Shown piece after piece: positions 21,886 to 42,418 of a DNA stretch of 64,000 nt. This stretch comes from Candidatus Poribacteria bacterium (GTDB taxonomy: Bacteria > Poribacteria > WGA-4E > PCPOR2b): assembly GCA_965116925.1 (NCBI GenBank), contig OZ220744.1, positions 2,729,136 to 2,793,135 on the forward strand, in the 5' to 3' direction. The translations under genes and the position numbers were made by a program. Every line of letters begins with the position of its first letter. Position 1 is the stretch's first letter. A model generated the notes under the pieces. It was given only the letters and a program-made list of their open reading frames with translations. It made no database searches and was not told the DNA's origin.

Positions 21886-22467
21886 TCATTGGTTTGCCAA
21901 TCGTAGTTCTGCGGTTGTCTTTCCGCCGTGTTCGACAAGCACCTCAATAACGGCTTCATTGCCTTTCCGAATTGCATCGTCTAACGCGGTTTGGTCACGA
22001 TCCCCCGTTGCCCGGCGGTTAATATCTACTCCGTGTGTTATAAGCAACAGCGCAGTTCTACGATAGGCATCTGAGTTTTCCTTGCCGCTGGTTGAGCCGC
22101 CTTGCGCTGCGGCGTGGAGTGCTGTTGTCATACCGAACGCATCTCCATTGACGTCTGCTCCATCTCCGAGTAGCAATTCAACGGCTTCGGCACACCCTGC
22201 ATCCGCCGCCCAAGCGATCGGGGTTCGCCACCATTGGGCGCGACGTGAGTTGAGGTCTGCCCCTGATTGAATGAGTCGCTCACACAGGCCGGTCATATTT
22301 CTGTGGGCTGCCCAATGCAGTGGTGTTGCCCCTCGGAGCACACCTTCTCGGAGCGATTCACCGATGGCGAGTGCCGGTTGTTGTTCGATAAGTTCTTGTG
22401 CAGCTTGTTCATTCCCGTTGTCAATTGCATCGATCAGTTCATCTACAGATGCCATACTTTGCTCCAA
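21886..22467 (-). CDS. Ankyrin-repeat protein
   Basis: Four or more ANK repeats ('GATPLHWAAHRN...LIQSGADLN', 'TALHAAAQGG'). Confidence 0.85.
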   Translation of the reverse strand: MEQSMASVDELIDAIDNGNEQAAQELIEQQPALAIGESLREGVLRGATPLHWAAHRNMTGLCERLIQSGADLNSRRAQWWRTPIAWAADAGCAEAVELLLGDGADVNGDAFGMTTALHAAAQGGSTSGKENSDAYRRTALLLITHGVDINRRATGDRDQTALDDAIRKGNEAVIEVLVEHGGKTTAELRLANQ

Positions 22468-23955: not shown

Positions 23956-24780
23956 TTATCCTACCTCTTCACCATCAAGCCTACCAACCTGCAGATCGAT
24001 CTCTTCACGGGTCTCCATCTTATCGATTTTGCCGTCCGCCATGTAGAAAATTCGATCCGAGACATCAAGCATCTTTGTGTCGTGGGTGGCTGTGATAATC
24101 GTGACCCCATTCTCCTCATTTAGACTTTTCAGGAGGTCAATAATTTCAAGCCCGGTCCGTGTGTCTAGGTTTCCTGTTGGCTCATCCGCGAGGACAATCG
24201 CGGGATCGTTTGCGAGGGAGCGCGCAACGGCGACACGTTGTTGCTGACCACCGGAGAGTTCAAGCGGCTTATGCTGGACCCGTTCTCCTAACCCCACAGT
24301 GGTTAGCAGTTCAACCGCTTTTGTGCGGCTATCATCAGCAGTCATCCCAGCGAAAATCATGGGGAGGGAGACATTTTCGAGGGCGGTCATCACAGGGATG
24401 AGGTTGAACGACTGGAAAATGTAACCGATTTTACGGCAGCGCAGCCATGCCAATTCGTAGGCATCTAGTTGTGCGATATCCACTTCATCTATGTAGACCC
24501 TGCCCTCTGTCGGCTTGTCCAAGCCACCGATCATGTTGAAAAGCGTTGACTTACCGGAGCCTGATGGTCCCATAATCGAGATGTACTCTCCACGGCGGAT
24601 TTCAAAGTTGGTGCCTCGCAACGCCTCAACGACAGTGGTGCCCATCTCGTATTTCTTAATTAGATTCCTGACCCGTACCGTGTTTTCCTTGGGTAGATCC
24701 CTTGCAAATCGGGCGGGCGTTTCTGTCGGCACGGCGGTCTGCCCTGCTGTTTCCGGAGATAGTCCTTCTAATTCTGCCAT
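23956..24780 (-). CDS. ABC transporter ATP-binding protein, MacB/LolD/FtsE-type
   Basis: Walker A 'GPSGSGKSTLFNMIGG', Q-loop 'IGYIFQSFNL', signature 'LSGGQQQRVAVARSL', Walker B 'VLADEPTGNLD'. Start at MAELEG preferred because of the overlap with the upstream gene. Confidence 0.85.
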   Translation of the reverse strand: MAELEGLSPETAGQTAVPTETPARFARDLPKENTVRVRNLIKKYEMGTTVVEALRGTNFEIRRGEYISIMGPSGSGKSTLFNMIGGLDKPTEGRVYIDEVDIAQLDAYELAWLRCRKIGYIFQSFNLIPVMTALENVSLPMIFAGMTADDSRTKAVELLTTVGLGERVQHKPLELSGGQQQRVAVARSLANDPAIVLADEPTGNLDTRTGLEIIDLLKSLNEENGVTIITATHDTKMLDVSDRIFYMADGKIDKMETREEIDLQVGRLDGEEVG

Positions 24781-24781
24781 T

Positions 24782-25201
24782 TTACCTGTTTCCTTTCTTC
24801 GCTTTTTGGGGAACCGCAAATCCTACCATTCCCCGCTTGCCTAACTGCCGCATAAACGTGAACAGCGATGTCTCCGCCTCTTTTCTCGTCATGCGATATT
24901 TGTCACAAAGTTGTTTGACGATATAACCGATGGAATTATGTCCATCGCATAGTTGCCACACAAAGCCTCCGACATCGTCCAAGACAACCACACGGTTGGG
25001 AGGCAGCATAAAGAGTTTCGCTACCAACTTTAACCACAGCGTCTCCTTCTGAGGAATAACCAATGCAACTTCCCCTTTGTCATCGACCTCCCATTCGATT
25101 AACTGGTTGCGTAGCGGCAATGATTTTAAGATGTCCCCTCGATCCAGTTGGGATTCTGGACGTTTCTTGAGTCTGAGTTTGTAAAGGATTGCATTAATCA
25201 T
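24782..25201 (-). CDS. PqqD-family (RiPP-recognition-element-like) protein
   Basis: 'VVLDDVGGFVWQLCDGHNSIGYIVKQLCDKYRMTRKEAETSLFTFMRQLGKRGMV' matches the PqqD/RRE winged-helix pattern. Confidence 0.6.
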   Translation of the reverse strand: MINAILYKLRLKKRPESQLDRGDILKSLPLRNQLIEWEVDDKGEVALVIPQKETLWLKLVAKLFMLPPNRVVVLDDVGGFVWQLCDGHNSIGYIVKQLCDKYRMTRKEAETSLFTFMRQLGKRGMVGFAVPQKAKKGNR

Positions 25202-25250
25202 CGGTCTATTTGGTTCATTGGTACATTAGTTCATTGGTACATTATCCGTG

Positions 25251-25559
25251 CTATAGCGCAATTTCTGCCGTCGCGTACGCGAGAGCAAAGAGGAGGAATA
25301 GTATAGCGTAACCAATTTTTGAATTGCAATCAGGAAACTTCCTTTTGAGATCCGTTGCACAATACACGGCAACCGCTGCGGAACCTGTTAGGCTCACGCC
25401 GAGAAAAATCGGATCTGGAATGTCGAGTTCTCCGATGAAGTACCCCATCAAACCACAGAGAATACACCACAAGAACCAGACGGGACCAGAATCATACCAC
25501 TTCATCTCTCTTTCCCCCTTTGCCGTAATTGTGGTGCGTGGGTTCATGTTACGTTTCAC
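25251..25559 (-). CDS. Small two-TM membrane protein (unknown)
   Basis: Hydrophobic segments 'VWFLWCILCGLMGYFIG' and 'IGYAILFLLFALAYA'. Confidence 0.45.
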   Translation of the reverse strand: MKRNMNPRTTITAKGEREMKWYDSGPVWFLWCILCGLMGYFIGELDIPDPIFLGVSLTGSAAVAVYCATDLKRKFPDCNSKIGYAILFLLFALAYATAEIAL

Positions 25560-25576
25560 GTTTCACGCGTCACGTT

Positions 25577-26506
25577 TTAATGACGCCGGATGCTCGCCGC
25601 AATCTCTTCGGCTGTTCTCGCTGCATCCTGTTTGGCGATCGCTTGGACGACGTAGATCCGATTGGAGTGATGACAGTACCAGAGGTTCACGGCGAAAGTT
25701 TTGCGACGCATAATTTTGTCGATCACCAGCGCGGGACCAAAAGGCACGCGGTCTATGAGACGAGTTTCCTCTCCGATTAACGTTAGCCGTTCTTCTGCAT
25801 CGCCGTTGCTGGATTCAATTGAGAAGCCATATCCACGGATGGCTTTGGCGTATCTCCCTCGAAACCACTCCTCAAGATCTTGTTCCTTGAGCGTAACATC
25901 TGCGACTCCATACCGTTCGATGCTAACTTTTCGACTTCCATCTACGAACGAAAAGAGCAGGTAGCCCGACAACAGTTTATGCTTGTCGAGGCGATACCGC
26001 CGCGGAACTTCTGCATTGAGTTGGTAGGCACTCCAGAGCGTCGCCTGTCCTACCGGGTGATCTTGAACCGACCTAAATATTCGGCTAGTTGTCTCCTTAA
26101 TATTTTCCTTGAGATGTCCCATAACCTGCACGATTGTAATTCGCTTGCAGATATGGCAGTGGAAGATAACGCCGCTCGCCCGAAAATCGCCCTTCCAGTT
26201 GAAGAAAACAACCTCTCTGTCCTCGAAAAACGCCTCATCCTTGATTAGATTGACGTTACGCTGGATGTGCAGGTTTGTATCTTTGCGTTTATAATTTTTG
26301 CGGACGAGCTTGAAATAGTCGTCGAGGACCTTTTGGAGGTCTGGTTTCTTCTGCTTTGATTCAGACCATTTTAACTCAAGGCGCGGCATATCCGCGTCCT
26401 CTAGGCGCAGGTATCCACTTTTATCGTCACCAGATAATCCACTCAATTCCCAATCTGCGGGTAGTTCAAGGGTAATGCCACCCCACCCTAAAGTTGTCCA
26501 TTCCAT
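25577..26506 (-). CDS. Hypothetical 309-aa protein (no recognisable family), first gene of the PqqD/ABC operon
   Basis: Long ORF with codon usage like its neighbours. Tight spacing (17 bp) to the downstream gene. Confidence 0.5.
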   Translation of the reverse strand: MEWTTLGWGGITLELPADWELSGLSGDDKSGYLRLEDADMPRLELKWSESKQKKPDLQKVLDDYFKLVRKNYKRKDTNLHIQRNVNLIKDEAFFEDREVVFFNWKGDFRASGVIFHCHICKRITIVQVMGHLKENIKETTSRIFRSVQDHPVGQATLWSAYQLNAEVPRRYRLDKHKLLSGYLLFSFVDGSRKVSIERYGVADVTLKEQDLEEWFRGRYAKAIRGYGFSIESSNGDAEERLTLIGEETRLIDRVPFGPALVIDKIMRRKTFAVNLWYCHHSNRIYVVQAIAKQDAARTAEEIAASIRRH

Positions 26507-26546
26507 AGTTGGTTCATCGGTACATTAGTTCATTGATTATGAAGTT

Positions 26547-26680
26547 GGCTCATGTTAAGAAAGCGTGCAACAGCAACCGAGTTTTCGTAGGGGTTGGGTC
26601 ACCCAACCCTTACGGCGGGCGGGGAAACCCCGCCCCTACGATTTCGCTTCATATTTTGCACTTTCTTTTTACATGAGCCA
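26547..26680. repeat. MITE-like element family 2, copy c
   Basis: 'ggctcatgttaagaaagcgtgcaa...cgtaggggttgggtcacccaacccttacggcgggcggggaaaccccgcccctacg...tttgcactttctttttacatgagcc'. Confidence 0.8.
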
Positions 26681-26743
26681 TGAAGTTAACGGTTGAGGGC
26701 ATCTAGGGCTTCCACACATGTCACTGATGGTCCCTGACGAATC

Positions 26744-27475
26744 TTAAAGCATTGGACTGTCAGGTCTGGGATTAGTCTCAGTCCTCTTATTCTCGGAAAT
26801 CTTGGGGGTAGTGGACGAAGGAATTTCAAGTCCGGTCAAATTCTTAAGAATGGAACGAGCAGCCATATGTACCAATTCATCAACAGCCCGTTTGTAAGTC
26901 CACTGATCCCCTGTTTGTACAGAAATCTCACCTGTTCCTTCCCAGACGACATCACCCATTGTACATGACCAGACTTGTCCAAATATATTCATTTTGATTT
27001 CTTTTACTACTAATGGGTCTTTGCTCAAGATCCTTGGTGCAAGTCCCTCTGTTTGTGATTGCTCTAAGAGTTCGACGTACAATAGATATTCGACACCTAC
27101 CACTGTCCCAATTTTTATCAGACTGCCTTTGTTCAAGATAGCTGAACGGTTATAGTTGTTTATCAGTCGTGAATAGTCTTCTATCAATCCCGCATTGCTG
27201 ATTAAGGCTATTGTTTCAAGGTCCCCTATAAACTTACCTTCAGGAAATTTATTGCTAAGATCTTTATTCAACTTATTTCCAAACGGTCTTCGTAATCCTT
27301 CCTGACTGGCGCTGGCAACAACAGGAAGTAAGCCCAATCCTCCTGCAGCGAGTGCCCCCTGTTTAGATTCTGTGGCAAAATAATCGAATTTGACATTCTG
27401 TGTAATAGGCGCTGCACAACCTGAAAAAATCACCAACATAAGGGGGAACAGTTTTTGGTGTATTGATCGTTTCAT
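26744..27475 (-). CDS. Lipoprotein (unknown function)
   Basis: Signal peptide plus lipobox 'LVIFSGC'. Confidence 0.55.
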   Translation of the reverse strand: MKRSIHQKLFPLMLVIFSGCAAPITQNVKFDYFATESKQGALAAGGLGLLPVVASASQEGLRRPFGNKLNKDLSNKFPEGKFIGDLETIALISNAGLIEDYSRLINNYNRSAILNKGSLIKIGTVVGVEYLLYVELLEQSQTEGLAPRILSKDPLVVKEIKMNIFGQVWSCTMGDVVWEGTGEISVQTGDQWTYKRAVDELVHMAARSILKNLTGLEIPSSTTPKISENKRTETNPRPDSPML

Positions 27476-27581
27476 CGGTTTTTCCTCTTTGAATGTCGAG
27501 ATATGAATCTCGACCTACACGATCTGGTTACAGCACATTGCCTTGAATCCCGATTTATCGGGGCGGAGTGTGCCCACTACT

Positions 27582-29579
27582 TTAGAAAGGCTTGACAATC
27601 ACCGCTTTAGAGACTAGCGCAATTGCAACCGTTCCCATTCCAATCAGTCCGACACCACAGACAAAGCCTGCTGCTAAAACGGGATTAAACATGAACCATC
27701 GTTTCAGTCCGAATATCTTAATCATGTAAAATCGACCGATAATTGCTCCCATTACCTTTGGAAGCATCATGCCTGGATCTGCTCCGATGCCGCCGACGAT
27801 CCCGTAGAACCACATACTCGGCATCTTTGCCACCCAGAGTATGCCGTAGATTGCCAGCGAGGAGGCGAAGCCTGCCGCAACATAGTTGCCACGAATGGCT
27901 TGCAACATCTGGCTGTTTCCGTCACGAAGCGAGGTTTTCCAGAGGCATTCGTTGGTCGCATAGAGGGGCCACCACGTCTGTGCGAATGGGTATTGCGCCG
28001 ACGGAATTGGCGCAACTTTCCAGACAAAATGCCAGACCACAATGCCGGAGACGATCAGGATCGGCATAAGCAGCAATCGTGCAGCGATACTACTGGTGAA
28101 GGTGGTGCCTGTCAATTCGAGGACACGCCAACTTTGGGTGCCACGTCCGTAGTCTTCGTCCGGCAGCGGGACGAACCAGATATCGATCTCCTCATAACGA
28201 CTCAGGATAAATGTAGTTTCGTGGAGATAAGGGATCTCGAAAAGGTCACGGCCGAGGATCCCGTACGTTCGCGCAGTGATGTATGAATTGATCGGGGTGT
28301 ACAAAAAGGCGAATCCGATAAGGAAAACCAGTGGGAAGTTCGGCGCCATATAGGTGTGGACAATATAGATAAAAGTGGTCATCCCAAAGAGCCATAGGAT
28401 TGCCATCAACCAGAGCGGAAAATCGCCGCGTCCCGGTGGTGGTTCTCTTAACGATCTGCCTGCCCCTGTCTGTTCCTGTCGGGCTTGCTTAAACTTTATC
28501 ACCATCGGAATCGAGGCTGCCATGCCAACGAGGGCGAAGCTGAACGATTTTCCCATCCCAAAGCTAATCCAAAAATCGAGACCGTTATATAAGCCTACAC
28601 CGCGGACATCCAAGCCGGGACGCCACTGATGTAAAATCTCTGCGGGATAGAGAAGTCGTGGGTTCAGAATAAACTGGGTAAAGAATGCCCCTGCCAGCTC
28701 CGTCATGATAATGGGAAATGGCAGCACAAAACCGGTGAGTACCGCTCCGAAGTCGGTCGATAATGCGAATACACCTGTTGGCGCGATTTCTTCAATTACA
28801 TTCGTGAAATCGATAAATGGAATTTTCAGGAGCTGTATCGGCGTTGTCATCATCACGCCTGTAAGTGAGGGGATACCGATATAGATAAATCCCCAGATCA
28901 AACCCGCCATAGATCCGACCGAAAAAACCCGCCACCGCCACGTTTCGACACGTCCGGTGGTTTCTGCTAAGGCGGTCGCGCCCTGTGCTTCGATGGGTGC
29001 CATTGGGTAGGGTAGCCGCTCCATATCCGCTGTCAGTCGAAACAGAAAGTAGCCTGCACTGATATAGCGGATCTCCCCCAGCAGCTTGAATATCAGGAAG
29101 AATGCGATGGGCCAGAACCAGTCCATGTGCAAGAGCGAACGCTCTGCAATCGCTATCGCATCTTTCGGCGGCACAATCCAGAAAGGGATTTTATCCGCAA
29201 TTTCATACGACGCAGCTTGTGGCGTATTGATAAAGTATGCGTACCAGATAAAGCCGCGATACTGACCCCCGGACCCGACCGCTGCACCGGTGAGTCCAAG
29301 TAACATATAAAGCTCTTGTCGCCGAGCGGTTGTGAAAGATCGACGGGCTAGCTCTGTGAACAGGATAACTGCGACCCACGGTGCTGCCCCTGCCCCGGAT
29401 TGACCAGAGACGAGGGTCAGGTAGATTGACCCCGGCATCATCAGCAAGCCGACAAAAAGTGCGCCCAAAAAGACCTTCAGCGTTAGACCCGATTCAAAAG
29501 TGCGGATACCACCATCGATGTCGTAGCGCTGTGCCCAAACTTGCCACTCTTCTGCTTGTGTAATTCGTTCTCTTGCCAT
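27582..29579 (-). CDS. Polytopic membrane protein (about 14-16 TM; possible transporter, family not recognised), paralog 2
   Basis: 665 aa, about 70% identical to the product of 30966-32963. Many hydrophobic helices. Conserved N-terminus 'MARER.TQAEEWQ.WAQRYD'. Confidence 0.6.
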   Translation of the reverse strand: MARERITQAEEWQVWAQRYDIDGGIRTFESGLTLKVFLGALFVGLLMMPGSIYLTLVSGQSGAGAAPWVAVILFTELARRSFTTARRQELYMLLGLTGAAVGSGGQYRGFIWYAYFINTPQAASYEIADKIPFWIVPPKDAIAIAERSLLHMDWFWPIAFFLIFKLLGEIRYISAGYFLFRLTADMERLPYPMAPIEAQGATALAETTGRVETWRWRVFSVGSMAGLIWGFIYIGIPSLTGVMMTTPIQLLKIPFIDFTNVIEEIAPTGVFALSTDFGAVLTGFVLPFPIIMTELAGAFFTQFILNPRLLYPAEILHQWRPGLDVRGVGLYNGLDFWISFGMGKSFSFALVGMAASIPMVIKFKQARQEQTGAGRSLREPPPGRGDFPLWLMAILWLFGMTTFIYIVHTYMAPNFPLVFLIGFAFLYTPINSYITARTYGILGRDLFEIPYLHETTFILSRYEEIDIWFVPLPDEDYGRGTQSWRVLELTGTTFTSSIAARLLLMPILIVSGIVVWHFVWKVAPIPSAQYPFAQTWWPLYATNECLWKTSLRDGNSQMLQAIRGNYVAAGFASSLAIYGILWVAKMPSMWFYGIVGGIGADPGMMLPKVMGAIIGRFYMIKIFGLKRWFMFNPVLAAGFVCGVGLIGMGTVAIALVSKAVIVKPF

Positions 29580-29843
29580 AACAACCTAAGTCCATTAGTT
29601 CAAGGGTTCATGGCTAATTAAGTTACATTAAGGGACTCGATCCGAAACGATTCGGTCCTTCAGTGCCTTTAATGAGAAGAAGATTCTCCAAACTATCATC
29701 GCAATAGGAAGTCTCAGTTATGCTCAATTTCAGTTAGGTGTTGAGATATGAATCTCGACCTACTTACCCAATCGGGAATCTATGTTTGTTTGGGGAATAA
29801 CAATCCTCGTTTTCTGTTTCTTCTGTATGCTGCTCTATCCACG

Positions 29844-30938
29844 TTAGTCCAATGCTTGTAGGAACGCTTCAAAACTGGAGGCTTGGATTGCTCTGAGATG
29901 CAGTTGTGTCAGACGCTCGGTATCTAGTATCAATTCAAGTTTCTGCTGAACGTGTTGTAGGTTATTCTGCGGGAATCTCGCATTGAGTACTGAGAGAATA
30001 TTTTTGATAGTAGTTTCGCGCGCGCCTTGTTCAATGCCTTGTTCAATACCTTGTGCCTTGCCTTGTTCAATGCCTTGTGCCTTGCCACGTTCAAGCAGCA
30101 CTTCTGCCATTGACTGTGCCATTGAGGATACCTCCATTTCTTCTGTATGCCGATCTACCAAGGTTAGTAACTCGTTGTGTTCTTCAGCAGGACGGCGATG
30201 CAGAATCAATAACAACAGATACATAATTGCTCTATACCGCTGCTCCGATTCTGTCACATCCAGCGAGTTCAACTGTGATAGTGCTTGAACCAACGCTTCG
30301 CTTAGTGCCTCTCGACTTGCACCCTCTTTTTGAAGAACCGTTAGCAGCCAGCCCAACGGGTGCCCTGTCTTTGTTAAATCCGTCTCATCTGTTTCCTTCA
30401 CGCTTAAAAACAAAGTGTCAAATTTGGGAACAAACCGAGAGAGTAGGTCCGGAATGTCCATTATGTCAGTGAGTGCCAAGGAAACGCTCCAACGCCGTTC
30501 CCCCGTATATAACACCATCGGGAGGATCGGACGCAAACGCCGCTCACTTCCCGGAACATCATCTGACTCCCATTCCCTACGTTGTGCGTCCCACAGTTGC
30601 GTCATGTAAAACAGCACTCGAAATCCCATCAGCGGATCTACTGTAGATTGGTGTTCAAGCAAGATATAGATGAGCAGTTCATCGGTTTCCGAACCCCGCC
30701 GAAATGGCACGCTGAACACGAGGTCCGATTCCTGTTCTCGGAGTGTGTCAGAAATGAAGCTTCTGTTGAGTGGTGTAAGTTGGTCAAAATCTAAAAACGC
30801 TACCAGCTCGTTTGCAACGATTTCTACCAAGCCACGGACATATTGCTTGTCTTGGAACAACCACCGCGCGCTTCGGTCAGGAAAGTGTTCAATCGGAAAA
30901 TCGACAGAAGCGCGTTCTTCTGTTTCCTCAGTTTGCAT
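29844..30938 (-). CDS. Rpn-family (YhgA-like, PD-(D/E)XK) recombination-promoting nuclease / putative transposase with a DUF4351-like C-terminal tail
   Basis: 'IYILLEHQSTVDPLMGFRVLFYMTQLW' matches the EHQS..D..M.FR hallmark of Rpn/Transposase_31. C-terminal 'ERGKAQGIEQGKAQGIEQGIEQGARE' repeat tail. Confidence 0.65.
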   Translation of the reverse strand: MQTEETEERASVDFPIEHFPDRSARWLFQDKQYVRGLVEIVANELVAFLDFDQLTPLNRSFISDTLREQESDLVFSVPFRRGSETDELLIYILLEHQSTVDPLMGFRVLFYMTQLWDAQRREWESDDVPGSERRLRPILPMVLYTGERRWSVSLALTDIMDIPDLLSRFVPKFDTLFLSVKETDETDLTKTGHPLGWLLTVLQKEGASREALSEALVQALSQLNSLDVTESEQRYRAIMYLLLLILHRRPAEEHNELLTLVDRHTEEMEVSSMAQSMAEVLLERGKAQGIEQGKAQGIEQGIEQGARETTIKNILSVLNARFPQNNLQHVQQKLELILDTERLTQLHLRAIQASSFEAFLQALD

Positions 30939-30965
30939 AGTTTGATGAACTATTGAACCAATGAG

Positions 30966-32963
30966 CTAAAACGGCTTGACAATAACCGCTTTGGAGACTA
31001 GTGCGATTGCAACCGTTCCCATGCCAACAAGCCCGACACCACAGATGAAGCCTGCCGCCAAGACGGGATTATACATGAACCATCGTTTCAGACCAAACTG
31101 TTTGATCATGTAAAACCGACCGATGAGGGCACCCACCACTTTTGGAACCATCATCCCCGGGTCTTGACCGATCCCCCCAACAATGCCGTAGAACCACATA
31201 CTTGGCGCCTTTGCCATCCAGAGCAGCCCGTAAATTGCCACTGAGGAGGTAAAGCCGGCTGACACGTAATCGCCGCGAATGGCTTGTAACATCTGGCTAT
31301 TTCCATCTCGAAGTGAGGTTTTCCAGAGACATTCATCGGTTGCGTAGAGAGGCCACCATGTCTGTGCAAAGGGATACTGTGAGGACGGGATAGGTGCGAT
31401 CTGCCAGATGAAATGCCAGACCACGATTGTCGCAACAATCAAGAGCGGCACCATCAAGGCACGCGCTAGGACGTCGCTGGTGAAAGTTGTGCCGGTCAAT
31501 TCAAGCACACGCCAATGCTGCGTACCCGCTCCGTAATCTTCATCTGGCAGGTGGACAAACCAGATATCAATCTCCTCGTAGCGGCTTAAAATAAACGTTG
31601 CCTGATGGATGTAGGGCAGCACGAAGAGCGGTCGCCCTAACACTCCAAATGTTCGTGCGTTGATATAGGAGTGCAAAGGGGTATACAGAAAGGCAAAGCC
31701 GAGGAGGAAAGAAACGGGAAAGTTCGGGACCATCCGATGCACAATCCATACATACACCACCATGCTGAGACCCCATAAGCCGCCCATGAACCAAATTGGG
31801 AAATCACCACGTCCCGGCGGCGTTTGCAGCGAGCCTCGCGCCCCCGCCTCTTGTTGTTTTTTCCTTCTGAGGCTCAACATGATTGGGATGGACGCTGCCA
31901 AACCGACGGCAGCAAAGCTGAAGGATTTGCCCATGTTGAAACTCAACCAGAAATCGAGGTCATTAAACAGCTTAACGCCACGCATATCCAAGCCCGGACG
32001 CCACTGATGTAGGATCTCCAATGGGTAGAGGATTCGCGGGTTCAGGATAAACTGGGTGAACATCGCTGCAACGAATTCGCTAATAATAAGTGGAAACGGT
32101 AGCACAAACCCCTGTAGCATCATGCCAAAATCTGTCCATAGGGCAAACATCCCCGATGGTGCAAAGCTTTCGATGCTTGGGGTGAAGTCAATAAATGGGA
32201 TTTTCAGAATCTGTATCGGTGTTGACATCATCACGCCTGTGAGCGCAGGAATACCGATATAGAAAAACCCCCAGAACAGTCCCGCCATGGAACCGATTGA
32301 AAAGACACGCCAACGCCATGTTTCGCCCTGACCCGTGGTTTCGGCTAATGCGGTCGCGCCTTGCGCTTGAATCGGTGCCAACGGGTAGGGGAGTCGCTCT
32401 AAATCTGCTGTCAGACGGAACAGAAAATAGCTCGCGCTAATATAGCGAACCTCTGCTAGCAACTTCATGACCAGAAAGATCGCAAGGGGCCAGAACCAAT
32501 CCATATGCAACAGCGAACGCTCTGCAATTGCCATCGCGTCCTTTGCGGGTGCAACCCAATAAGGGACTTTGTCCGCGATTTCATACGACTGTGCCTGCGG
32601 CGTGTTGATAAAGTAGGCGTACCAGACAAACGGATAGGCACGATATTGGATTCCAGAACCGACCGCCATGCCGGTTAGTCCCAGCAAAATGTAAAGTTCT
32701 TGTCTCCTTGCAGTTGTGAAAGACCGGCGCGCCAATTCTGTAAATAGAATGACCGCCACCCAAGGCGCAGCACCTGCGCCCGACTGACCTGCAACTAAGG
32801 TCAGATAGATTGACCCCGGCATCATCAATAGACCGATGAAGAGTGCACCTAGAAAGACTTTCAAGGTTAAGCCGGACTCAAAGGTTCTTAAACCGCCTTC
32901 AACATCATAACGTTGTGCCCAAGCTTGCCACTCTTCTGCTTGCGACACCCTTTCTCTTGCCAA
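30966..32963 (-). CDS. Polytopic membrane protein, paralog 1
   Basis: See 27582-29579. Collinear over the full length. Confidence 0.6.
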   Translation of the reverse strand: MARERVSQAEEWQAWAQRYDVEGGLRTFESGLTLKVFLGALFIGLLMMPGSIYLTLVAGQSGAGAAPWVAVILFTELARRSFTTARRQELYILLGLTGMAVGSGIQYRAYPFVWYAYFINTPQAQSYEIADKVPYWVAPAKDAMAIAERSLLHMDWFWPLAIFLVMKLLAEVRYISASYFLFRLTADLERLPYPLAPIQAQGATALAETTGQGETWRWRVFSIGSMAGLFWGFFYIGIPALTGVMMSTPIQILKIPFIDFTPSIESFAPSGMFALWTDFGMMLQGFVLPFPLIISEFVAAMFTQFILNPRILYPLEILHQWRPGLDMRGVKLFNDLDFWLSFNMGKSFSFAAVGLAASIPIMLSLRRKKQQEAGARGSLQTPPGRGDFPIWFMGGLWGLSMVVYVWIVHRMVPNFPVSFLLGFAFLYTPLHSYINARTFGVLGRPLFVLPYIHQATFILSRYEEIDIWFVHLPDEDYGAGTQHWRVLELTGTTFTSDVLARALMVPLLIVATIVVWHFIWQIAPIPSSQYPFAQTWWPLYATDECLWKTSLRDGNSQMLQAIRGDYVSAGFTSSVAIYGLLWMAKAPSMWFYGIVGGIGQDPGMMVPKVVGALIGRFYMIKQFGLKRWFMYNPVLAAGFICGVGLVGMGTVAIALVSKAVIVKPF

Positions 32964-33205: not shown

Positions 33206-33374
33206 GCTATTTTTTTTCTCGAAAAAGCTCTTCCCAAACGTGGGCGATAATAATTCCAACAATGAGAATTAGGGCAGCGAGTAGTTGTGCCTGCCATCTG
33301 CCTTGCATAGCAAAAATCGAAAATACCCAAAAAATTGCACCGATAAAAATTAAGACATACGCTAGTTTTTCCAT
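33206..33374 (-). CDS. 55-aa two-TM membrane peptide, translationally coupled to the giant upstream gene
   Basis: ATG at 33374 with AAGGAG 8 nt upstream. The RBS overlaps the TAA stop (33393-33395) of the 7.4 kb gene. Product MEKLAYVLIFIGAIFWVFSIFAMQGRWQAQLLAALILIVGIIIAHVWEELFREKK. Confidence 0.55.
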
Positions 33375-33392: not shown

Positions 33393-36300
33393 TTAATCCG
33401 CTGGTGCGGGTTGAGCAGCCAGACCGCCAACGCCCGGAGCGTCTTCCGTCTCGCTCTCTTGCCGTCCACGCTCATGGAACTCACCGCGGATATCAGCACT
33501 GAACGTCCGCCAAATTAGTAGCTGTTTTCGGACAAGGTTCAAGAAACGACGGTTGACGCGCTTCCATGAAGCAATCTCCCCGCTCTCACGGTGGACATCG
33601 AGGTGAATCTTATACAACTCTTCCTCTTCTCCGCCGACCGGTGAGGTGACAAGCCGAATGGATTGGCTGACTCCGAGATCGTAGGGGGCGAGCCACACCA
33701 TCATGCTGATGTTGTAGGCTTCTTCCTCTTCCTCTTTCCCTTCCACTACCACAGGCGTTCGACCGAAGGCGACCTGATCCGTGTAGAAATCGCTTGCGGA
33801 TTCGTCGGCGTGTGCTTCAAAGTAATCGCGCATAAAGATATTTAAGCCGAGCGATTCTTCTGCCAACACGGTGAAGGGGAGATCGAAGTGCCACTCGTCG
33901 CCTTCAGGCTCCGGCAGCTGCCATTTCCGTTCGATGTCAGGCACCGCCATGCGACTGGCTTTAATTGCAGGATACAGTGTACTTCCAATCACGACAATCA
34001 TTACAATAATGGTTGCTACCACTGTTGACATTGACGAGTAGTTGAGGGTCAATCCAGCAAGCAAGCCAAAGTTGACAAGGACGGTTGCGACTGCCTGGCC
34101 GAGCAGGTAACCGAGCACAGCACCGACAATCGCATACACACACGCTTCCGCGAGGAACAGGAAGGCGATATGCACGGGAGCGAGTCCGACAGAACTGTAG
34201 ATGCCGATTTCACGGACCCGTTCGTAGACCGCACCGAGCATCGTGTTCAGAACGATCAGCGACGCAATTAAAATTGGTATGAATAGGTTACCCATACCGG
34301 AGAAAGAGGTCATTCCGATGGAACTGTAGAGATAGGTGTCCCGATCTTTTCCAACAAAGAAGTCGAGTGCGATTCGGTTCATCAGCGGTGCCATGATCAG
34401 GTCCAGTTTATCTGCCGCACTGAAGATTGTTGGATCGCCGGGCTGTGCTTCCATGTTGACAGCGACGGAGCGTAACGTCCCGCCCTGATTCATGACTACA
34501 TCATACGGCAGGATAGCCACAGCATCGGGAGGTAGATGAATATATTTCTCCAACTCTCCTTCCATGGCTTGGTTCTGTCCTTGGGCGCCACCGCCTCGCG
34601 CTTCCTGCTGCTGCATCAGTTGGTAGTCAACAGGTGTCAGTTCTTCGCCATCATTATCCTGTAAGTCTTTGAAGCCGATACCGAGAACACCCGTAACGGT
34701 GAAGTCTGCGCCGTATACGGATACAGTCGCTTTGCCCATATCGGCTTCGGTGATGCCGAGCAGATCCGCCATACCTTTGGGGAGGACACAAGCATAGGGC
34801 CATTGTGTGGGCCACTCTGCTTCATCGTCGGGGTGATACCATCGACCATACTGGAGGTAACGGTCAATTCCTGTTACACCGGGTTCATCTTGACTCATCC
34901 CGACCAACATGGTAGCAGAGTAGGTCTTTGGCTGACCGGTGGTAGTATTGACAGGCGGTACAGGATCTTGCAGGTTGGGGGTGCGCTCTAGCTGCACAAA
35001 CGACTGATCGCCGGTGCCCGCGGACTGATACCATGCGCGTGGCGCGACGATGTTATGCACTCGGAGGACGGATTCTTCGCCCAGCTCAATCAACGATCCC
35101 TCCTGACGTAATTGGGCTATGATTGCTTCAACCTCTACGTCAGCCTGCTCTGCCGATTTACCTTGCTGCCCCAGTCGTTTCTTCAGCAGTAACCGTAGAT
35201 CTTTTTCAGGGATTTGTGTTTTCCGCAGATCATTTGTGAGTGAGTTGACAACAGGTTCTTCGAGCGGATTCCAATACTGATCTCGGATAAGCATCCCGGT
35301 GTAGCGCGGCGTTACGGAAGGTAGGTTGGTGCTGTTGGGATGCATAAAGGTACGCACCGATGTAAAGGAGATGACCGTAAAGGTGAGAATAACCAGTGTG
35401 CTACAGGTGAGGATGGTGCGGCCCTTCCGCTTACGCATATTGGAAATACCTAGACTGAAAGCGGCAGCGGAGGCAGACAAGCGTCCCACGTCTGCCTTGT
35501 ACACTTTTGATCCCTCCTGCTTAATTTTTTCCACCTGTTCTTCAAATTTCCGGACGATGATGCTGATCACAATTGCCGTCAACGCAAGGACGACGAACGC
35601 AATCAGGATGATAACCGGCGTCGTGGTAATCTGGAATGCGGGGTGCACCTGCGCCAAGAAGAAAAAGACAACGAGGAAGATCGCAGCTGTCCCCATAATC
35701 TGTTTTTGGACGGTTGGGAAAGCGAATATCAACCGTTCCATGAAGTAGGCGAACGGGATCAGGAGGGCGAGATAGAACATCACACCATTGACTACGTCAT
35801 TGCCGGTTTTCTTCACATCGGGGTAGGCGCGGGATTCGTATCCCCACGCGGCGCGGGCAAGTTTGAGTGCCTGCTGATAGTCTTTTTGGGTGAGGGCAGC
35901 CTCCGCCTGATTTAGATGTTCGTTGGCGAATTGGTGGAGCTGATCAAGCCGATCGCTGCTGATGCCGAACCGTTTATACAGACTCGCCCGGTTCTCATCG
36001 AGCCACCACATATCGCGGACGACAACGTATGGGGTTACGCGAATGCTACCGTTCTCGCGGACAACAAACCCTTCTCCGGTATAGAGTGTCGGGTTCTTCG
36101 TTCCGCTTTTACTCGCCTTGATCAATAGTAACCGTTTGCCGATTTGTCCATACGCCATGCCGACCTTGATACGACTGTTAGGCTCCGAATAAACGAGCGC
36201 GATAGGCTCAGTTGCCGAGATACCTTCCTGCTGCCACGGCTTCGATACGCCATACTTTTCTGGTGGGCTATCGCTTGCGGCATCAAAAACTTCCAGTTCA

Positions 36301-39300
36301 CGAAGCGTTCGTAGGTATCGCTGATCCACAAGATCGTAGATAGTGGTAGACACACAGGGGAAAACCACGATACGGCATCCACGACGGTGGGTGTTAATCG
36401 GTATCAGGTTCGGCAAGAGTTTCGCGCCGAAGTTACCGAGATCCGGTGCGTAGACAATATCACCGGAATCCGGGTGGAGGATATAAGCTTCCACCTCTTG
36501 CGTTCCTTTGAGGCGGATGGTGGCACGCCCCTCCATCGCAAGTCCTGCAACCTCAAAGTTTCCTTTATTGTCGCCCATTGCAATGAGATCGCCTCGCACC
36601 CCCATCATGGTTTTGTGCTGATTCCGCAAAGCGAGAATAGGATACTCCACCGGTTTGTTTGGTAGCGCGCTCTCACGGGCATCATACTCGACGACATCAC
36701 CAAACAGGTTGCAGTAGAAGTTCCCCACCCGTGCTGCGGTGGGCATCTTCGGATCGCGCATCGCTTGGATAAGAATAGCGGCAAGGGTTTTCGCCTGTTT
36801 ATGCAAGGCACCATCGTGGCTCAAATCCATTCGGTCAATTGTGTCGAGCGGGGTATCGGTCAACACGCGTGCATCGTCGATGGTGGCAAAAGCAATTCCG
36901 GTAAAGCCGGTCAGGGTTGCCACTTCGCTATCAAAGGCTATCTTACCAGGTATGTAGGTCTTCCAGATCTTACCGCCACTAGCAGAGATTGCGTTGACAA
37001 AGTTGGTCTCACCACCAAACCCGGCGATATCAATGAGTGCCTTAATATCATCGACTTCCTCTTGTGTAAATTCGGACGGGTCCTCGTGGCGCAGGGCAAG
37101 CATCGCATCCATTCGATTGAGCAGGCGCACCTTATTCTTCCGGTTCTTCCGCGCCTCCCGGATATCGTTTCGGATGAATCGTTCGACTTCCTTACGGATA
37201 TAGTCCATATCCTTGAGCATATCCTCGGAAGGTTCGCCCTGATTTTTCATCTGCTCAAACTGCATCTTCATCAATCGAGACACTCCGGATAGCCCGACCA
37301 ACGTTGCGTAATGCTCAGTAACTAAGCTTTCAAGGCTCTTGCCCTCGATGGCTTTTTTCGGATCGATGCCAGCTGCAACTGTCCATTGAGTATTCATCAC
37401 CGCTTGGCGGATCTGATCGTCGGTGAAGGTCCATAGTTTCTGGATACGTTCACCGAAATCGGCACCCTCTGCGTATTCGGCAAGTTTATTTCCGATGGAA
37501 GCGAACTCGCGGCGGAGGACAAATTCGGGCTGCTGGTCATAGAACCACCCTTTGTTGAATACGCCAAACTGGTCGTTCTGGCTGGAGAGGTCAATGGCGA
37601 TAAAGAGAGAGGTGTAGTAACGATTAAAGATGTCTTGCAGTGCAATCGCTTGTTCGATGGAACGTATCTTCCGTGTGTATTCTGACTCGCTGATACGTGC
37701 AATTTTCTCGACCCGTTTTTGTAGATTGCGAAATCGAGCGTTCCGCATCGTGAGCAGGTTATCACGGAGGAGAATCTTGGTCTCCTCGTCCGGATCGCGG
37801 TCAAGACGGTCAAGGATGTTCAGCAGGTTCTGGAGTTCGACAATATCGTTTTTGGCTCGCCGCTTCACCATCTCTAGTAGATGCTGTTCTTCAAGCTGAC
37901 CGAAGATCTGCTCTCGGACAGCCATCGCTCGGTCTGCTGCATCTTCAGGGAGATAGTGGCGGAGGACGAGTGCCTCTTCGGCGAGGTAGGGACGGTTCAG
38001 CGACGCATGGCGTTCAAGGAGGGATTCAATTCGATAGCGTTCAAGGCGAGCGTTCCGCATCGCGGTTTCGAGGATACTCTGTTTATCTCTGGTCAGGTCA
38101 TCAACCAAAATTTGGTCTAATTCTCGTGAGGTTGCTGTTCCCGTTGTCGGGTCCATCATCTCCAACTTCTGGTGGAGTTGAGTCTGAACAATCTCAAACT
38201 GCTTGAGGGTTGCCTCATTGAGGAAGAGTTCTAGCTCATCCGCAAAGCCTGCCGGGAGGTGATCCGGTTTAGAACTTAACTGGGTGATAGCGTTTTTGAT
38301 ACTATCCTCTGCATCGCTGCTTGCGGGAATATTGGCGAGCGTTCGTTCAAGGAGTTGCCGTTCTTCTTCGATGTAGGCTTCCAGAGATTTTTCAGCGCGG
38401 TTGACAACCCTACGAGCTGACTTGATTCGTTCCAAACCCTTAAAGTCAAGATGGCGGTCTAACAACTTCTCTTGGGCATACTGGAGGGTGAATTTCCGTG
38501 GATCTTCAAATTCCCAGTCCTGCAAATTGTCCGAGAGTCGCTGAACATCTACCTCCAGATACGACGGTAGGTCACTCGGTACTGGTAGATAATAACGTCC
38601 CCCCTCCCGTTCCTTCGGTACGAGATAGCTGCTGTCTGGCGTTTGTACATATTTCCCTTCAATCCGTTCTGCCCTTAAATCCGCTTCCAATTTATCTATT
38701 GCCCAAACGTCCAACCGAGCCATCGGTAGGGCAATCTGTTCAATCAATTCACGTTGGGTGTCACGGCATTCAGCTAATGCTTGTGTGCGCAGTTTTAGGG
38801 TACGGTTAAGCATTGAACGCAGGAATTGAGTGGTCTGCAGCGCGTCTTTCTTGAACTTCGCGAGGTTGACCTCTAGTCGTGATTTTTCCTCTTCGGTGAA
38901 TCCTTGCTTCTCCCGTTTCTTGGTTGTTTCGAGTTTCTTCTTCTCTTTCTCTTTTGCGTCACGCTGGGCGTTACGCAACGAGTCAATGTTGCCTTTGGTT
39001 GTCTGTAGATCGGAGAGGGTTGTTGCTAGGGAGGCGACATCTGCTTTGAGTTCGTGGACATCGTGGAAGAAGTTAGGGGGTAAATCTACCAGCACATTTC
39101 GGTCGATCGATAGCAGTAGCTTACGTCCCAGTTCCTCAAACTCAAAGAGGTCGGTACTTAAACCGCGACGCAGCCCGCGCATTGTCGGTGTGCCGGGAGA
39201 ATCCGCTTCTCGTCCGACGATATCTTGACCAATCCCCTCCATAAATGCGCGCATACCCCCCAGTCCTTGGAAGTGGGCATCTGTTGCGACAAACAGAAGG

Positions 39301-40814: not shown

Positions 40815-41043
40815 GATAATTCCTCCGATTTTTTTAATAGGCTGACCGGCGCATAGTATGCTATTGTGTTTAGATCTGTCAGATTCTATCATAGTCACAA
40901 AGTCTTGTCAAGATGCAAAACGGATCTAATTCACAAAAACATAAAACGTGATTGGTTCATTTATCATGTTTTAGATTTCATTCATGGAATGCCGATAAAA
41001 TCGGGGATGCAGGGCGTAACTTCTATCAATTTCGTTTTATACC

Positions 41044-41157: not shown

Positions 41158-41502
41158 GTGATTATGTCTGTTTCAGTACGTATTAAGGAACGTCGTGATA
41201 AACTCGGAATGACACAAACACAACTCGCCAAATCGGCGAAGTTGACTCCCGCAGCGATTTCACAGTTTGAGTCCGGTGCCCGGAAACCGGCATTCGACAC
41301 ACTTTCGAGCCTTGCCGATGCGTTAAAAGTTACCACAGATTACCTGCTCGGCAAAAAGGCGCACGACTACGACGACCTTCTGGCGGATCCGAAGGTTAGT
41401 GTTATGTTTAGAGGTATCATGGACCTTTCTGAGGAAGATAAGGAGACGCTGATCGAGTTCTACCAATTTCTTAAAGATAAAAACGGCAAAAACACGCAGT
41501 AA
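41158..41502 (+). CDS. XRE-family helix-turn-helix transcriptional regulator
   Basis: HTH_3 'LGMTQTQLAKSAKLTPAAISQFESGARKPAFDTLSSLADALKVTTDYLLG'. ATG at 41164 is more likely the real start (RBS spacing). Confidence 0.85.
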   Translation: MIMSVSVRIKERRDKLGMTQTQLAKSAKLTPAAISQFESGARKPAFDTLSSLADALKVTTDYLLGKKAHDYDDLLADPKVSVMFRGIMDLSEEDKETLIEFYQFLKDKNGKNTQ

Positions 41503-41530: not shown

Positions 41531-42418
41531 ATGAACCAGAGATCGTCCCAAAAACATCAGATTGCAGAACAGGTGTCCTCCAAACCCGCTCTAGAACCTG
41601 CCGAGGGTGCGCGACAGTTGTTGCGTGAACTAAATGTTCAGGACATCCCGATTCAACCGCGAAATATTGCAGAACAGTTGCAAATCGTCGTCTGGGAACG
41701 GGAGATGGAAAGCCAGTACGATGGCTGCTTAATGCGGGTTGGCGATACGTGGGGCATTCTGCTCAACAATCTGATTCAATCAGAGTCCCGAAAGAACTTT
41801 ACAATCGCTCACGAACTGGGGCATTACTACTTGGATGGGGGACAAACTGAGAGGCAAAATTTCGCTACAGATGCAAAGAACAGAGCGGCGGAATTTGCCC
41901 CTCAGCACCGTTGTCAGCGCGAAGATTTGCGTGGATTTGATTCGCACCAATTGGAAGAGCAACGTGCCAATCAGTTCGCAGTTGAGCTGCTGATGCCCTC
42001 TCCCATTTTTCGAGCGGACGCTACCGATCTGCCTAAAATCGGGTTGACGGCGATTGATACCCTCACTGCCAAATATTCTACCTCTTTGACCAGCACGGCT
42101 ATTCGCTACACACGCTTGAGTCCGCATGTTTGTGCGATTGTGCTGTCTGAGCGGGGGCAGATTAAATACTTTGCTTATTCAGATGGCTTTCGTCAGAATA
42201 GTGATTGCTATCTCGCGAAAAATAAGCCCCTCCATCCCGACTCGGTCGCAGCCCTGCTTGACAAAGGTAAATCGAAAGAGGTGAAAGAACACCAGCGGAA
42301 AGTTCCGTTGTCCCATTGGTGTTCGACGCAATCGGATCAACCCCTCGTCGAGCAATCCCGCCGATTGCCCCGCATGAATCAGGTGCTCTCGTTTCTTTGG
42401 TTGCCGGACGGGGCGTGA
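41531..42418 (+). CDS. ImmA/IrrE-family (DUF955) zinc metallopeptidase
   Basis: 'FTIAHELGHYYLD' HEXXH motif plus a downstream Glu. Paired with the upstream XRE HTH, as in ImmR/ImmA and CapH/CapP modules. Confidence 0.8.
   Translation: MNQRSSQKHQIAEQVSSKPALEPAEGARQLLRELNVQDIPIQPRNIAEQLQIVVWEREMESQYDGCLMRVGDTWGILLNNLIQSESRKNFTIAHELGHYYLDGGQTERQNFATDAKNRAAEFAPQHRCQREDLRGFDSHQLEEQRANQFAVELLMPSPIFRADATDLPKIGLTAIDTLTAKYSTSLTSTAIRYTRLSPHVCAIVLSERGQIKYFAYSDGFRQNSDCYLAKNKPLHPDSVAALLDKGKSKEVKEHQRKVPLSHWCSTQSDQPLVEQSRRLPRMNQVLSFLWLPDGA

Follow-up and report, generated by a model that had tools for sequence, protein, structure and literature searches.

A PqqD-like protein encoded in a conserved cluster with a giant FtsX protein and a MacB-class ABC ATPase in Candidatus Poribacteria and other phyla

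Genome mining for clusters of peptides that are ribosomally synthesised and post-translationally modified (RiPPs) uses RiPP recognition element (RRE) and PqqD domains as near-diagnostic markers. In the darobactin system the RRE belongs to the radical SAM enzyme DarE, and there is a precursor, DarA. A different type of machine is FtsEX, which drives EnvC, a coiled-coil protein that regulates cell-wall hydrolases through a degenerate metallopeptidase domain. Here we analysed a stretch of 64,000 nt (the window) of contig OZ220744.1 of Candidatus Poribacteria, which are abundant sponge symbionts, as a follow-up of its region 23956-26506, and compared it with loci of its relatives (labelled L001-L166). 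The original prediction for this region was a four-gene operon encoding a 309-aa protein, a small membrane protein, a PqqD-like RRE protein and an ATP-binding cassette (ABC) ATPase, with no cognate permease. All four open reading frames (ORFs) were recovered at their predicted places on the minus strand, with the same spacing of 17, 49 and 1 bp. However, the conserved unit is larger: the 309-aa, PqqD-like and ATPase genes form the 3' end of a six-gene cluster that includes a giant FtsX gene, and the small membrane ORF is a clade-specific accessory insertion. We consider it somewhat probable, at roughly 55%, that a type VII (MacB/FtsX-class) ABC envelope machine, and not a RiPP cassette, has the PqqD-like and 309-aa proteins and the ATPase as its cytoplasmic parts.

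One common gene order was found in five relatives with 52-94% identity (L001-L005). A giant M28/FtsX protein (2428-2471 aa) is followed by a 55-64-aa ORF, a 662-665-aa membrane protein, the homologue of the 309-aa protein, the PqqD-like protein and the ABC ATPase. With a PqqD alignment, one genome per GTDB species was scanned and 148 relatives were obtained; the best 80 of these 148 were fetched (77 with Poribacteria titles and three titled only 'uncultured bacterium'). Poribacteria saturate this PqqD scan, and other phyla were reached via homologues of the 665-aa protein and a metagenome scan. Based on tblastn with the window proteins, the full six-gene order was present on one strand in 75 of the 80 fetched Poribacteria species genomes. 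Four of the five exceptions end at contig edges and the fifth, L071, is without the upstream genes. There, the PqqD-ATPase pair is preceded instead by genes for a class A penicillin-binding protein, AhpC, a HAD hydrolase and a heptosyltransferase (L071:3835-7562), which may be a rearrangement or an assembly artefact of a metagenome-assembled genome. A chance juxtaposition of the cluster genes was rejected in view of the synteny. In a protein search, the homologues of the 309-aa protein carried organism names from Candidatus Poribacteria only.

Because the cluster order is conserved in 75 of the 80 Poribacteria genomes, the giant protein is the predicted cognate permease of the ATPase. Domain scans place an FtsX module in 33393-40898 only, in agreement with the earlier statement that the giant protein holds the sole FtsX module of the window, and its suggested role as a possible partner of the ATPase is supported by the conserved synteny. 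The lack of a cognate permease did not hold up, since the 75 Poribacteria genomes and two other phyla group the ATPase with an M28-like/FtsX protein. A conventional MacB permease next door in a complete assembly, which had been named as a finding that would count against the prediction, is literally absent; what complete chromosomes show adjacent to the ATPase is an unconventional giant FtsX protein. The gap of 7 kb between the ATPase gene and the giant gene in the window is due to a clade-specific duplication of the 665-aa gene and to insertions.

The family of the 665-aa protein was found to extend to other phyla. In Candidatus Firestonebacteria (L008) and Armatimonadota (L089) the core order of the cluster is retained and a small additional permease, mini-FtsX, is present. 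The order in these two loci is a PA/M28/MacB_PCD/FtsX protein (1454 and 1520 aa, respectively), a 650- or 666-aa protein, a 285- or 302-aa protein, the PqqD-like protein, the mini-FtsX (196 and 209 aa) and the ATPase. Mini-FtsX has four transmembrane (TM) helices and no periplasmic domain, and it was sought in the window and the Poribacteria clusters but not found. The 309-aa protein of the window and its Firestonebacteria homologue are 29% identical over the full length (E=3e-43), and the PqqD-like proteins are 41% identical, N-terminal extension included. At least three bacterial phyla conserve the cluster, which has apparently not been described before. In a literature search no paper was found that pairs PqqD with FtsX, treats DUF6785/DUF6784 or joins FtsX with Peptidase_M28, and the literature on Poribacteria, ABC transporters and oligopeptides, judged by titles only, is apparently unrelated to the cluster. 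As to the flanks, the Firestonebacteria cluster has a gene for a DUF6785/DUF6784 membrane protein upstream and one for a PilZ protein downstream (L008:514-2250), and the Armatimonadota cluster has two M16 peptidase genes upstream and a SpoIID gene at the contig edge (L089:861-3485).

When metagenomes were scanned with a three-phylum PqqD alignment, 80 loci were obtained, 40 of which had at least 1.2 kb on both flanks. FtsX and/or a MacB-class ATPase was encoded immediately downstream of PqqD in 24 of the 40; a homologue of the 309-aa protein upstream together with FtsX/ABC genes downstream was found in 17, and mini-FtsX and ATPase genes downstream only in seven. In L103 the other cluster genes are missing and the cluster consists of a minimal module of PqqD, mini-FtsX and ATPase, which argues that the closest tie of the RRE is to the ABC core. 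This module is located downstream of genes for an extracytoplasmic function (ECF) sigma factor, a zf-HC2 anti-sigma/T2SSE ATPase fusion and a T2SSF/T2SSE fusion (L103:5784-12002). In some metagenome clusters the second permease is a 647-aa FtsX protein and not a mini-FtsX of about 200 aa (L145:10386-12329), so the partner permease is variable. Stand-alone PqqD-like genes were also detected (L162, L113, L121 and L137-L139), with 38-42% identity to the Firestonebacteria protein. Their neighbours encode an AAA_18 kinase-like protein, an enolase-superfamily protein, a NERD protein, a radical SAM/DUF1848 protein and the archaeal PolB1-binding protein PBP2, and stand-alone members of the subfamily probably occur in archaea.

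Pfam PqqD (PF05402) matched the 139-aa protein with 48.6 bits as compared to a gathering score of 23.4 (E=1e-12), and the orthologues from L008, L111 and L162 also exceeded the Pfam threshold. Sequence matches, both with the single protein and with the family profile, were obtained to PqqD (3g2b), TbiB1 (5v1u) and the lasso PqqD chaperones 9x8z and 9x90. With the family profile the E-values were 1.1e-4 for TbiB1 and 1.8e-4 for PqqD, and the alignment spans beta3 and the three helices that form the leader-binding groove. The 139-aa protein is thus assigned to the PqqD/RRE family, as the original prediction had it, and the RRE fold is predicted. It shares PF05402 and a sequence alignment over the groove-forming elements with the discrete RREs (PqqD, the lasso B1 proteins TbiB1 and TfuB1, and ScmD). 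Unlike these, it has an N-terminal extension of about 60 aa that opens with the conserved basic motif YKLRLKKRP, and it fails all NCBIfam cut-offs for PqqD-type proteins (PqqD 38 bits against 46, lasso PqqD 30.8 against 80, ScmD 30.2 against 100 and GeoRSP PqqD 18.1 against 100). A further difference from the discrete RREs is the neighbourhood, with FtsX/ABC genes in place of a precursor, radical SAM, B2 protease or cyclase gene.

The first alternative to weigh is a cryptic RiPP system, where PqqD would be a leader-peptide chaperone and the MacB-class system would export the product or give immunity, as DarCD does for darobactin. Membership in the PqqD family agrees with this, and it has been argued that a PqqD-like gene near transporters usually marks a RiPP cluster (PMC7470986). 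For the window, L001-L005, L008 and L089, Pfam scans of the cluster genes nevertheless gave no radical SAM protein, YcaO, lasso B2 protease or cyclase, or PQQ enzyme, and LanB/C or any other known maturase was likewise missing from the clusters of the three phyla. The extra genes that were checked in three metagenome clusters (L142, L145 and L166) did not encode a RiPP maturase either. The original prediction had already noted that no precursor peptide, B2 protease or cyclase was evident, and this now extends across the Poribacteria, Firestonebacteria and Armatimonadota clusters. It had left the choice between an RRE in a new context and a missed precursor ORF. The new context is strengthened, as maturase-free clusters span phyla. 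As for a missed precursor, the range 24780-26750 that had been proposed for scanning holds nothing conserved. In an all-vs-all comparison of small ORFs from 86 Poribacteria loci, one conserved intergenic ORF was found, the 55-aa ORF at 33207-33374, outside that range; the remaining 'conserved' small ORFs are out of frame within large genes. This 55-aa ORF has two hydrophobic segments, belongs to a 90%-identity cluster with 46 members and has a homologous small ORF in 80 of the 86 loci (the window and 85 from Poribacteria), but is missing in L008 and L089. In a cryptic RiPP system the precursor and the maturase would lie elsewhere or be of unrecognised types, with this ORF as a candidate precursor and the 309-aa protein as a candidate enzyme. 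With its two TM helices and its restriction to Poribacteria the 55-aa ORF was rejected as a precursor, and no small ORF is kept across the phyla.

The same RiPP explanation meets mixed evidence in the other components. The ATPase matched the exporter models of DarD (214 bits) and lactococcin-972, but the DarD score is far under the cut-off of 375. A MacB-class ATPase and an FtsX permease clustered with an RRE-containing protein are in common with darobactin DarBCDE, of which neither the enzyme nor the precursor has a counterpart here. The conserved Cys and His residues of the 309-aa family could bind metal, although the PsbP/Mog1 fold serves as a binding scaffold, and none of the fold matches is known to be catalytic. 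The M16 peptidases that flank the Armatimonadota cluster are in agreement with a RiPP system as well. Taken together, we regard a cryptic RiPP as unlikely. No PqqD fusions were found among 150 representatives of the 309-aa family.

The giant protein starts with an N-terminal signal/anchor helix at aa 27-45, followed by LysM segments with acidic DGxDNxxDGxIDE repeats. A PA domain and an M28-like pseudo-peptidase are located at aa ~371-560. The region from aa ~620 to 1200 or further is long and charged, rich in Glu, Lys, Arg and Gln and poor in Pro and Gly, and is putatively helical or coiled-coil. Hydropathy placed three TM helices at 1702-1781, FtsX TM1 at 1828-1846, a MacB-like periplasmic domain next and FtsX TM2-4 at 2206-2317. 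A cytoplasmic C-terminal tail of about 185 aa (2318-2501) follows, and this tail is conserved across the three phyla. The Pfam matches were FtsX (1.8e-12; 47.8 bits as compared to a gathering score of 25.5), Peptidase_M28 (4.6e-8), LysM and PA. MacB_PCD scored 22.2 in the window, below its threshold of 27, and 32.1 in L008 and 27.3 in L142. By hydropathy the protein has the hallmark of a type VII permease, a four-TM FtsX module with a periplasmic domain between TM1 and TM2. The tail did not match the 309-aa family with hhalign, and thus it is not a third PsbP-like domain at a detectable level.

In the M28 module, Tyr stands in place of His97 of the Aeromonas aminopeptidase and His-Phe in place of Glu151-Glu152. 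This holds for the window, L002, L005, L008 and L089, and close to the position of Asp117 the alignment has an acidic residue. The catalytic residues are replaced alike in three phyla, which points to a conserved pseudo-peptidase without the canonical catalytic and zinc-binding residues. The best further PDB matches of the module were to Nicalin and the transferrin receptor, both inactive and M28-like. The acidic motif occurs three times amid the LysM-like segments (aa 207, 299 and 346; window 39789-40451, aa ~150-370) and this region weakly matches calmodulin-like EF-hand domains, so the repeats may bind calcium in the ectodomain.

For the ATPase, Pfam detected a complete ABC_tran domain (6e-34). 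The motifs read in the translation were Walker A GPSGSGKST, the signature LSGGQQQR, Walker B LADEPT and the H-loop. The best NCBIfam matches were LolD (233 bits), YbbA, DevA, DarD, MacB and FtsE, all of them under the equivalog cut-offs, which agrees with the predicted MacB/FtsE/LolD class. The FtsE model gave 206.6 bits as compared to a cut-off of 264.85 and the FtsX models 21 bits as compared to 250; FtsEX proper is ruled out by these equivalog scores and the non-division neighbours. A nucleotide-binding domain is linked to a permease in the 75 Poribacteria genomes, in L008 and L089 and in 17 metagenome loci. In the window a single base pair separates the PqqD stop codon from the start codon of the ATPase gene, and in L089 the stop overlaps the start of the next gene. 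By sequence and linkage, the cluster is assigned to the type VII ABC systems.

In comparison to the described members of this type, FtsEX with EnvC, PcsB or RipC also has a MacB/FtsE-class ATPase and a four-TM FtsX protein with a periplasmic domain between TM1 and TM2. An extracytoplasmic long helical region with a metallopeptidase-like domain that lacks catalytic residues, such as the LytM domain of EnvC, is another likeness, and peptidoglycan-binding LysM is added in Poribacteria. Unlike in FtsEX, the putative helical/pseudo-peptidase module is fused in cis at the N terminus of the permease via three extra TM helices, and the dead domain is PA/M28 and not M23/LytM, CHAP or NlpC/P60. The ATPase is nearer to LolD than to FtsE, below every equivalog cut-off and without a division-cluster context. 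FtsEX is also without counterparts of the OPT-fold transporter, the tandem PsbP-like protein, the PqqD-like protein, mini-FtsX and the cytoplasmic C-terminal tail. With MacAB-TolC and LolCDE the cluster shares the ATPase subgroup, the FtsX domain and MacB_PCD, and the large and mini FtsX proteins outside Poribacteria would form a heterodimer like LolC/LolE. However, the cluster encodes neither a MacA-type adaptor nor TolC, the second permease is without a periplasmic domain, and the large one has a giant N-terminal ectodomain and a C-terminal cytoplasmic domain. Judged by equivalog scores and context, the cluster is thus not FtsEX, MacAB or LolCDE; it is a type VII ABC system with an unprecedented accessory set.

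Two further members of this set are the 309-aa and 665-aa proteins, for which neither the single sequences nor the profiles gave a useful match to the PDB by sequence. NCBIfam curated models cover neither of the two nor the 55-aa protein, and none names the PqqD member. Pfam gave no match for the 665-aa protein, and the 309-aa protein, described as hypothetical in the original prediction, has no Pfam family. It is predicted to be cytoplasmic with a tandem PsbP/Mog1/DcrB-like fold, and no signal peptide or TM segment was detected in it. Unlike described PsbP/Mog1/DcrB/DUF1795 proteins (Eag, SciW), it is without a signal peptide and has a family-specific set of Cys and His residues and a novel genomic association. 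The family, with 1301 clusters at 50% identity (E<=1e-3), conserves CxxC at 117-120, D149-H150, C278 and C308-H309, and the window protein carries R308. The 665-aa protein is predicted to have an OPT/Yellow-Stripe transporter fold, and some of its homologues are named 'peptide transporter'. In contrast to the OPT/Yellow-Stripe transporters themselves (barley YS1, 7wsr), to which it is 13% identical, it fails Pfam OPT (PF03169) and is encoded within an ABC cluster; one of 41 homologues matched PF03169 at E=5.8e-4. The DUF6785 protein of L008 showed no relation to the 665-aa family with hhalign.

Our proposal for the working of this putative envelope machine draws on the mechanics of MacB, LolCDE and FtsEX. 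A dimer of the ATPase would dock on the FtsX coupling helices of the giant protein, which would be a homodimer in Poribacteria and a heterodimer with mini-FtsX elsewhere. The effect of ATP binding and hydrolysis would be transmitted by the TM1/TM2 stalk to the periplasmic core domain, from where the motion would reach the putative helical stretch and the inactive PA/M28 module, joined in Poribacteria by LysM. The closest functional parallel would be FtsEX with EnvC, PcsB or RipC, in which an ABC motor is coupled to a coiled-coil protein whose peptidase domain is degenerate or regulated. More speculatively, the PqqD-like protein may be an adaptor at the cytoplasmic face that uses its RRE peptide groove, perhaps together with the tandem PsbP-like protein. 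Its target might be a segment of a partner, for example the FtsX C-terminal tail, or a peptide from the OPT-fold transporter, and peptide binding might then couple or gate the ATPase cycle. A broader version, which we put forward only tentatively and hold to be less probable than not, is that a type VII ABC system took the RRE over from RiPP biosynthesis as its peptide-recognising subunit, and that with the Cys/His PsbP-like protein the RRE connects an OPT-fold peptide transporter with an ATP-driven FtsX permease by which a giant dead-peptidase ectodomain is moved.

Several observations weigh against an ABC envelope machine of this kind. The PqqD relatives of 16 of the 40 metagenome loci, some of them archaeal-looking, stand alone among unrelated genes, so ABC systems are not the only setting of the subfamily. 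Islands split the PqqD and ATPase genes in several Poribacteria, and tight translational coupling is thus not obligatory. The mechanotransmission model leaves the role of the OPT-fold protein unexplained. As the ATPase scores higher with LolD than with FtsE and there is no conserved division or cell-wall context, the analogy to FtsEX-EnvC is architectural only. In addition, the RRE fold was predicted from sequence only and the helical nature of the charged region was judged from composition alone.

A second alternative is peptide scavenging, in which the surface-exposed PA/M28-like module would pick up peptides or the N-termini of proteins, the ABC motor would power their release or transfer, the OPT-fold protein would import them and the PqqD-like and PsbP-like proteins would receive them in the cytoplasm. 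It would give the OPT fold and the 'peptide transporter' naming of the homologues a place, but OPT-fold homologues are also found alone in Zixibacteria-like genomes. The PA and M28 architecture is that of glutamate carboxypeptidase II and the transferrin receptor; however, with the M28 catalytic residues lost, a processing activity is not expected. M16 peptidases adjoin the Armatimonadota cluster and RREs bind peptides (PMC7470986), whereas the minimal module is without the OPT-fold and M28/FtsX genes. To add to this, we know of no type VII ABC system that works with a secondary importer. We therefore consider peptide scavenging improbable, to about the same degree as a cryptic RiPP. That the PqqD-like protein regulates the cluster by binding DNA with a winged helix, rather than binding a peptide, is very improbable: the RRE fold is a winged helix-turn-helix, orphan discrete RREs may be unknown RiPP classes or DNA-binding relatives (PMC7470986), the N terminus is strongly basic (KLRLKKRP) and a PadR-like protein matched weakly in the PDB (E=0.32), but the gene lies mid-cluster with the ATPase start 1 bp away, shows a co-variation with FtsX/ATPase that extends to the minimal module of three genes and has peptide chaperones and not HTH families as its best matches, the helix aligned to RRE alpha3 is acidic (EAETSL), and a separate HTH_3/IrrE pair is located upstream of the giant gene. 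All three alternatives are ranked below the reading of the PqqD-like protein, the 309-aa protein and the ATPase as cytoplasmic parts of an ABC envelope machine.

The features of the locus are collected in Table 1. Three insertions of the window are missing from its closest relative L003 (about 90% nucleotide identity with blastn): 29596-30949 holds the YhgA-like transposase gene and sits between the two copies of the 665-aa gene, 26510-27582 holds the lipoprotein ORF and 25222-25577 holds the small membrane protein ORF. The transposase gene, missing in L003, is at the same position in L010 and L014. The tandem duplication of the 665-aa gene is confined to the closest clade (L003, L009-L024, L026 and L035).

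Table 1. Features of the cluster region and their positions in the window
Feature	Position	Strand	Basis
Giant protein, predicted permease, 2501 aa	33393..40898	-	Pfam domains, hydropathy, synteny with ATPase
55-aa ORF, two TM helices	33207..33374	-	Hydropathy; the one small intergenic ORF conserved in the Poribacteria cluster
665-aa polytopic membrane protein, copy A, predicted OPT/Yellow-Stripe transporter fold	30966..32963	-	
YhgA-like (Transposase_31) gene, outside the system	29844..30938	-	Pfam 4.7e-30; on 1.35-kb insertion
665-aa membrane protein, copy B, tandem paralogue	27582..29579	-	BLASTP: 78% identity to copy A
243-aa predicted lipoprotein	26744..27475	-	Lipobox-like N-terminus; on ~1.07-kb accessory insertion
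309-aa protein, predicted tandem PsbP/Mog1/DcrB-like domains	25577..26506	-	ATG start
84-aa three-TM ORF, real but accessory gene	25251..25505	-	On ~355-bp clade-specific insertion; hydropathy
139-aa PqqD/RRE-family protein	24782..25201	-	Pfam PqqD
274-aa MacB/LolD/FtsE-class ABC ATPase	23956..24780	-	ABC_tran, NCBIfam

The small membrane ORF is 102 aa long when read from a GTG (25251-25559), and gene callers chose the ATG at 25505, which gives 84 aa. Neither Pfam nor NCBIfam has a family for the 102-aa protein, which falls in a 90%-identity cluster of two members. The insertion of about 355 bp was present in just four of 85 Poribacteria loci, and intact homologues of 84-98 aa at the same site were found only in L010, L011, L013 and L026 (64-75% identity). 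As it rides on a clade-specific insertion, the ORF was rejected as a core member of the operon. The 243-aa ORF, with a lipoprotein-type N terminus (...VIFSGC), was found in six close relatives only and its 90%-identity cluster has three members; a faint similarity to LpoB and the MXAN_6521 lipoprotein was detected (E about 0.009). The ATPase ORF starts from an ATG, and its open frame reaches a TTG at 24819.

In other Poribacteria, the stretch from the PqqD gene to the ATPase gene is a hot spot where defence and restriction-modification genes insert. Islands of 5-6 kb are present in L088:10643-15401 and L055:10593-16382, with genes for a C5 DNA methylase, a HATPase_c_3 protein, N6/N4 methylase-HNH fusions, a Shedu-like protein and an IS1595 transposase, and smaller insertions are found in L046, L058, L076 and L080. 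Promoter and terminator scans gave a signal no better than shuffled sequence. Divergent from the giant gene, on the plus strand, are an HTH_3 (Xre-type) gene at 41158-41502 and an IrrE/Peptidase_M78 gene at 41531-42418, which may be a regulator pair or an unrelated module. An HTH gene is likewise upstream of the giant gene in L002. Directly downstream of the cluster region, a 193-aa ankyrin-repeat protein is encoded at 21886-22467; ankyrin repeats are eukaryote-like and often noted in sponge symbionts.

A large, conserved set of maturase-free RRE genes tied to FtsX/MacB-class ABC genes would be systematic false positives in RiPP mining, and the set would be evidence for a second, non-biosynthetic role of the RRE fold. 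If true, this would be the first RRE with such a role, and would represent a new way of regulating or loading an ABC mechanotransducer. The cluster also defines uncurated families, namely the tandem PsbP-like proteins, the divergent predicted OPT-fold proteins and the FtsX proteins fused to a pseudo-M28 ectodomain and a cytoplasmic tail, which together broaden the range of architectures known for type VII ABC mechanotransducers. Nearly all Poribacteria carry the cluster, and its function is probably important for their cell envelope or nutrition.

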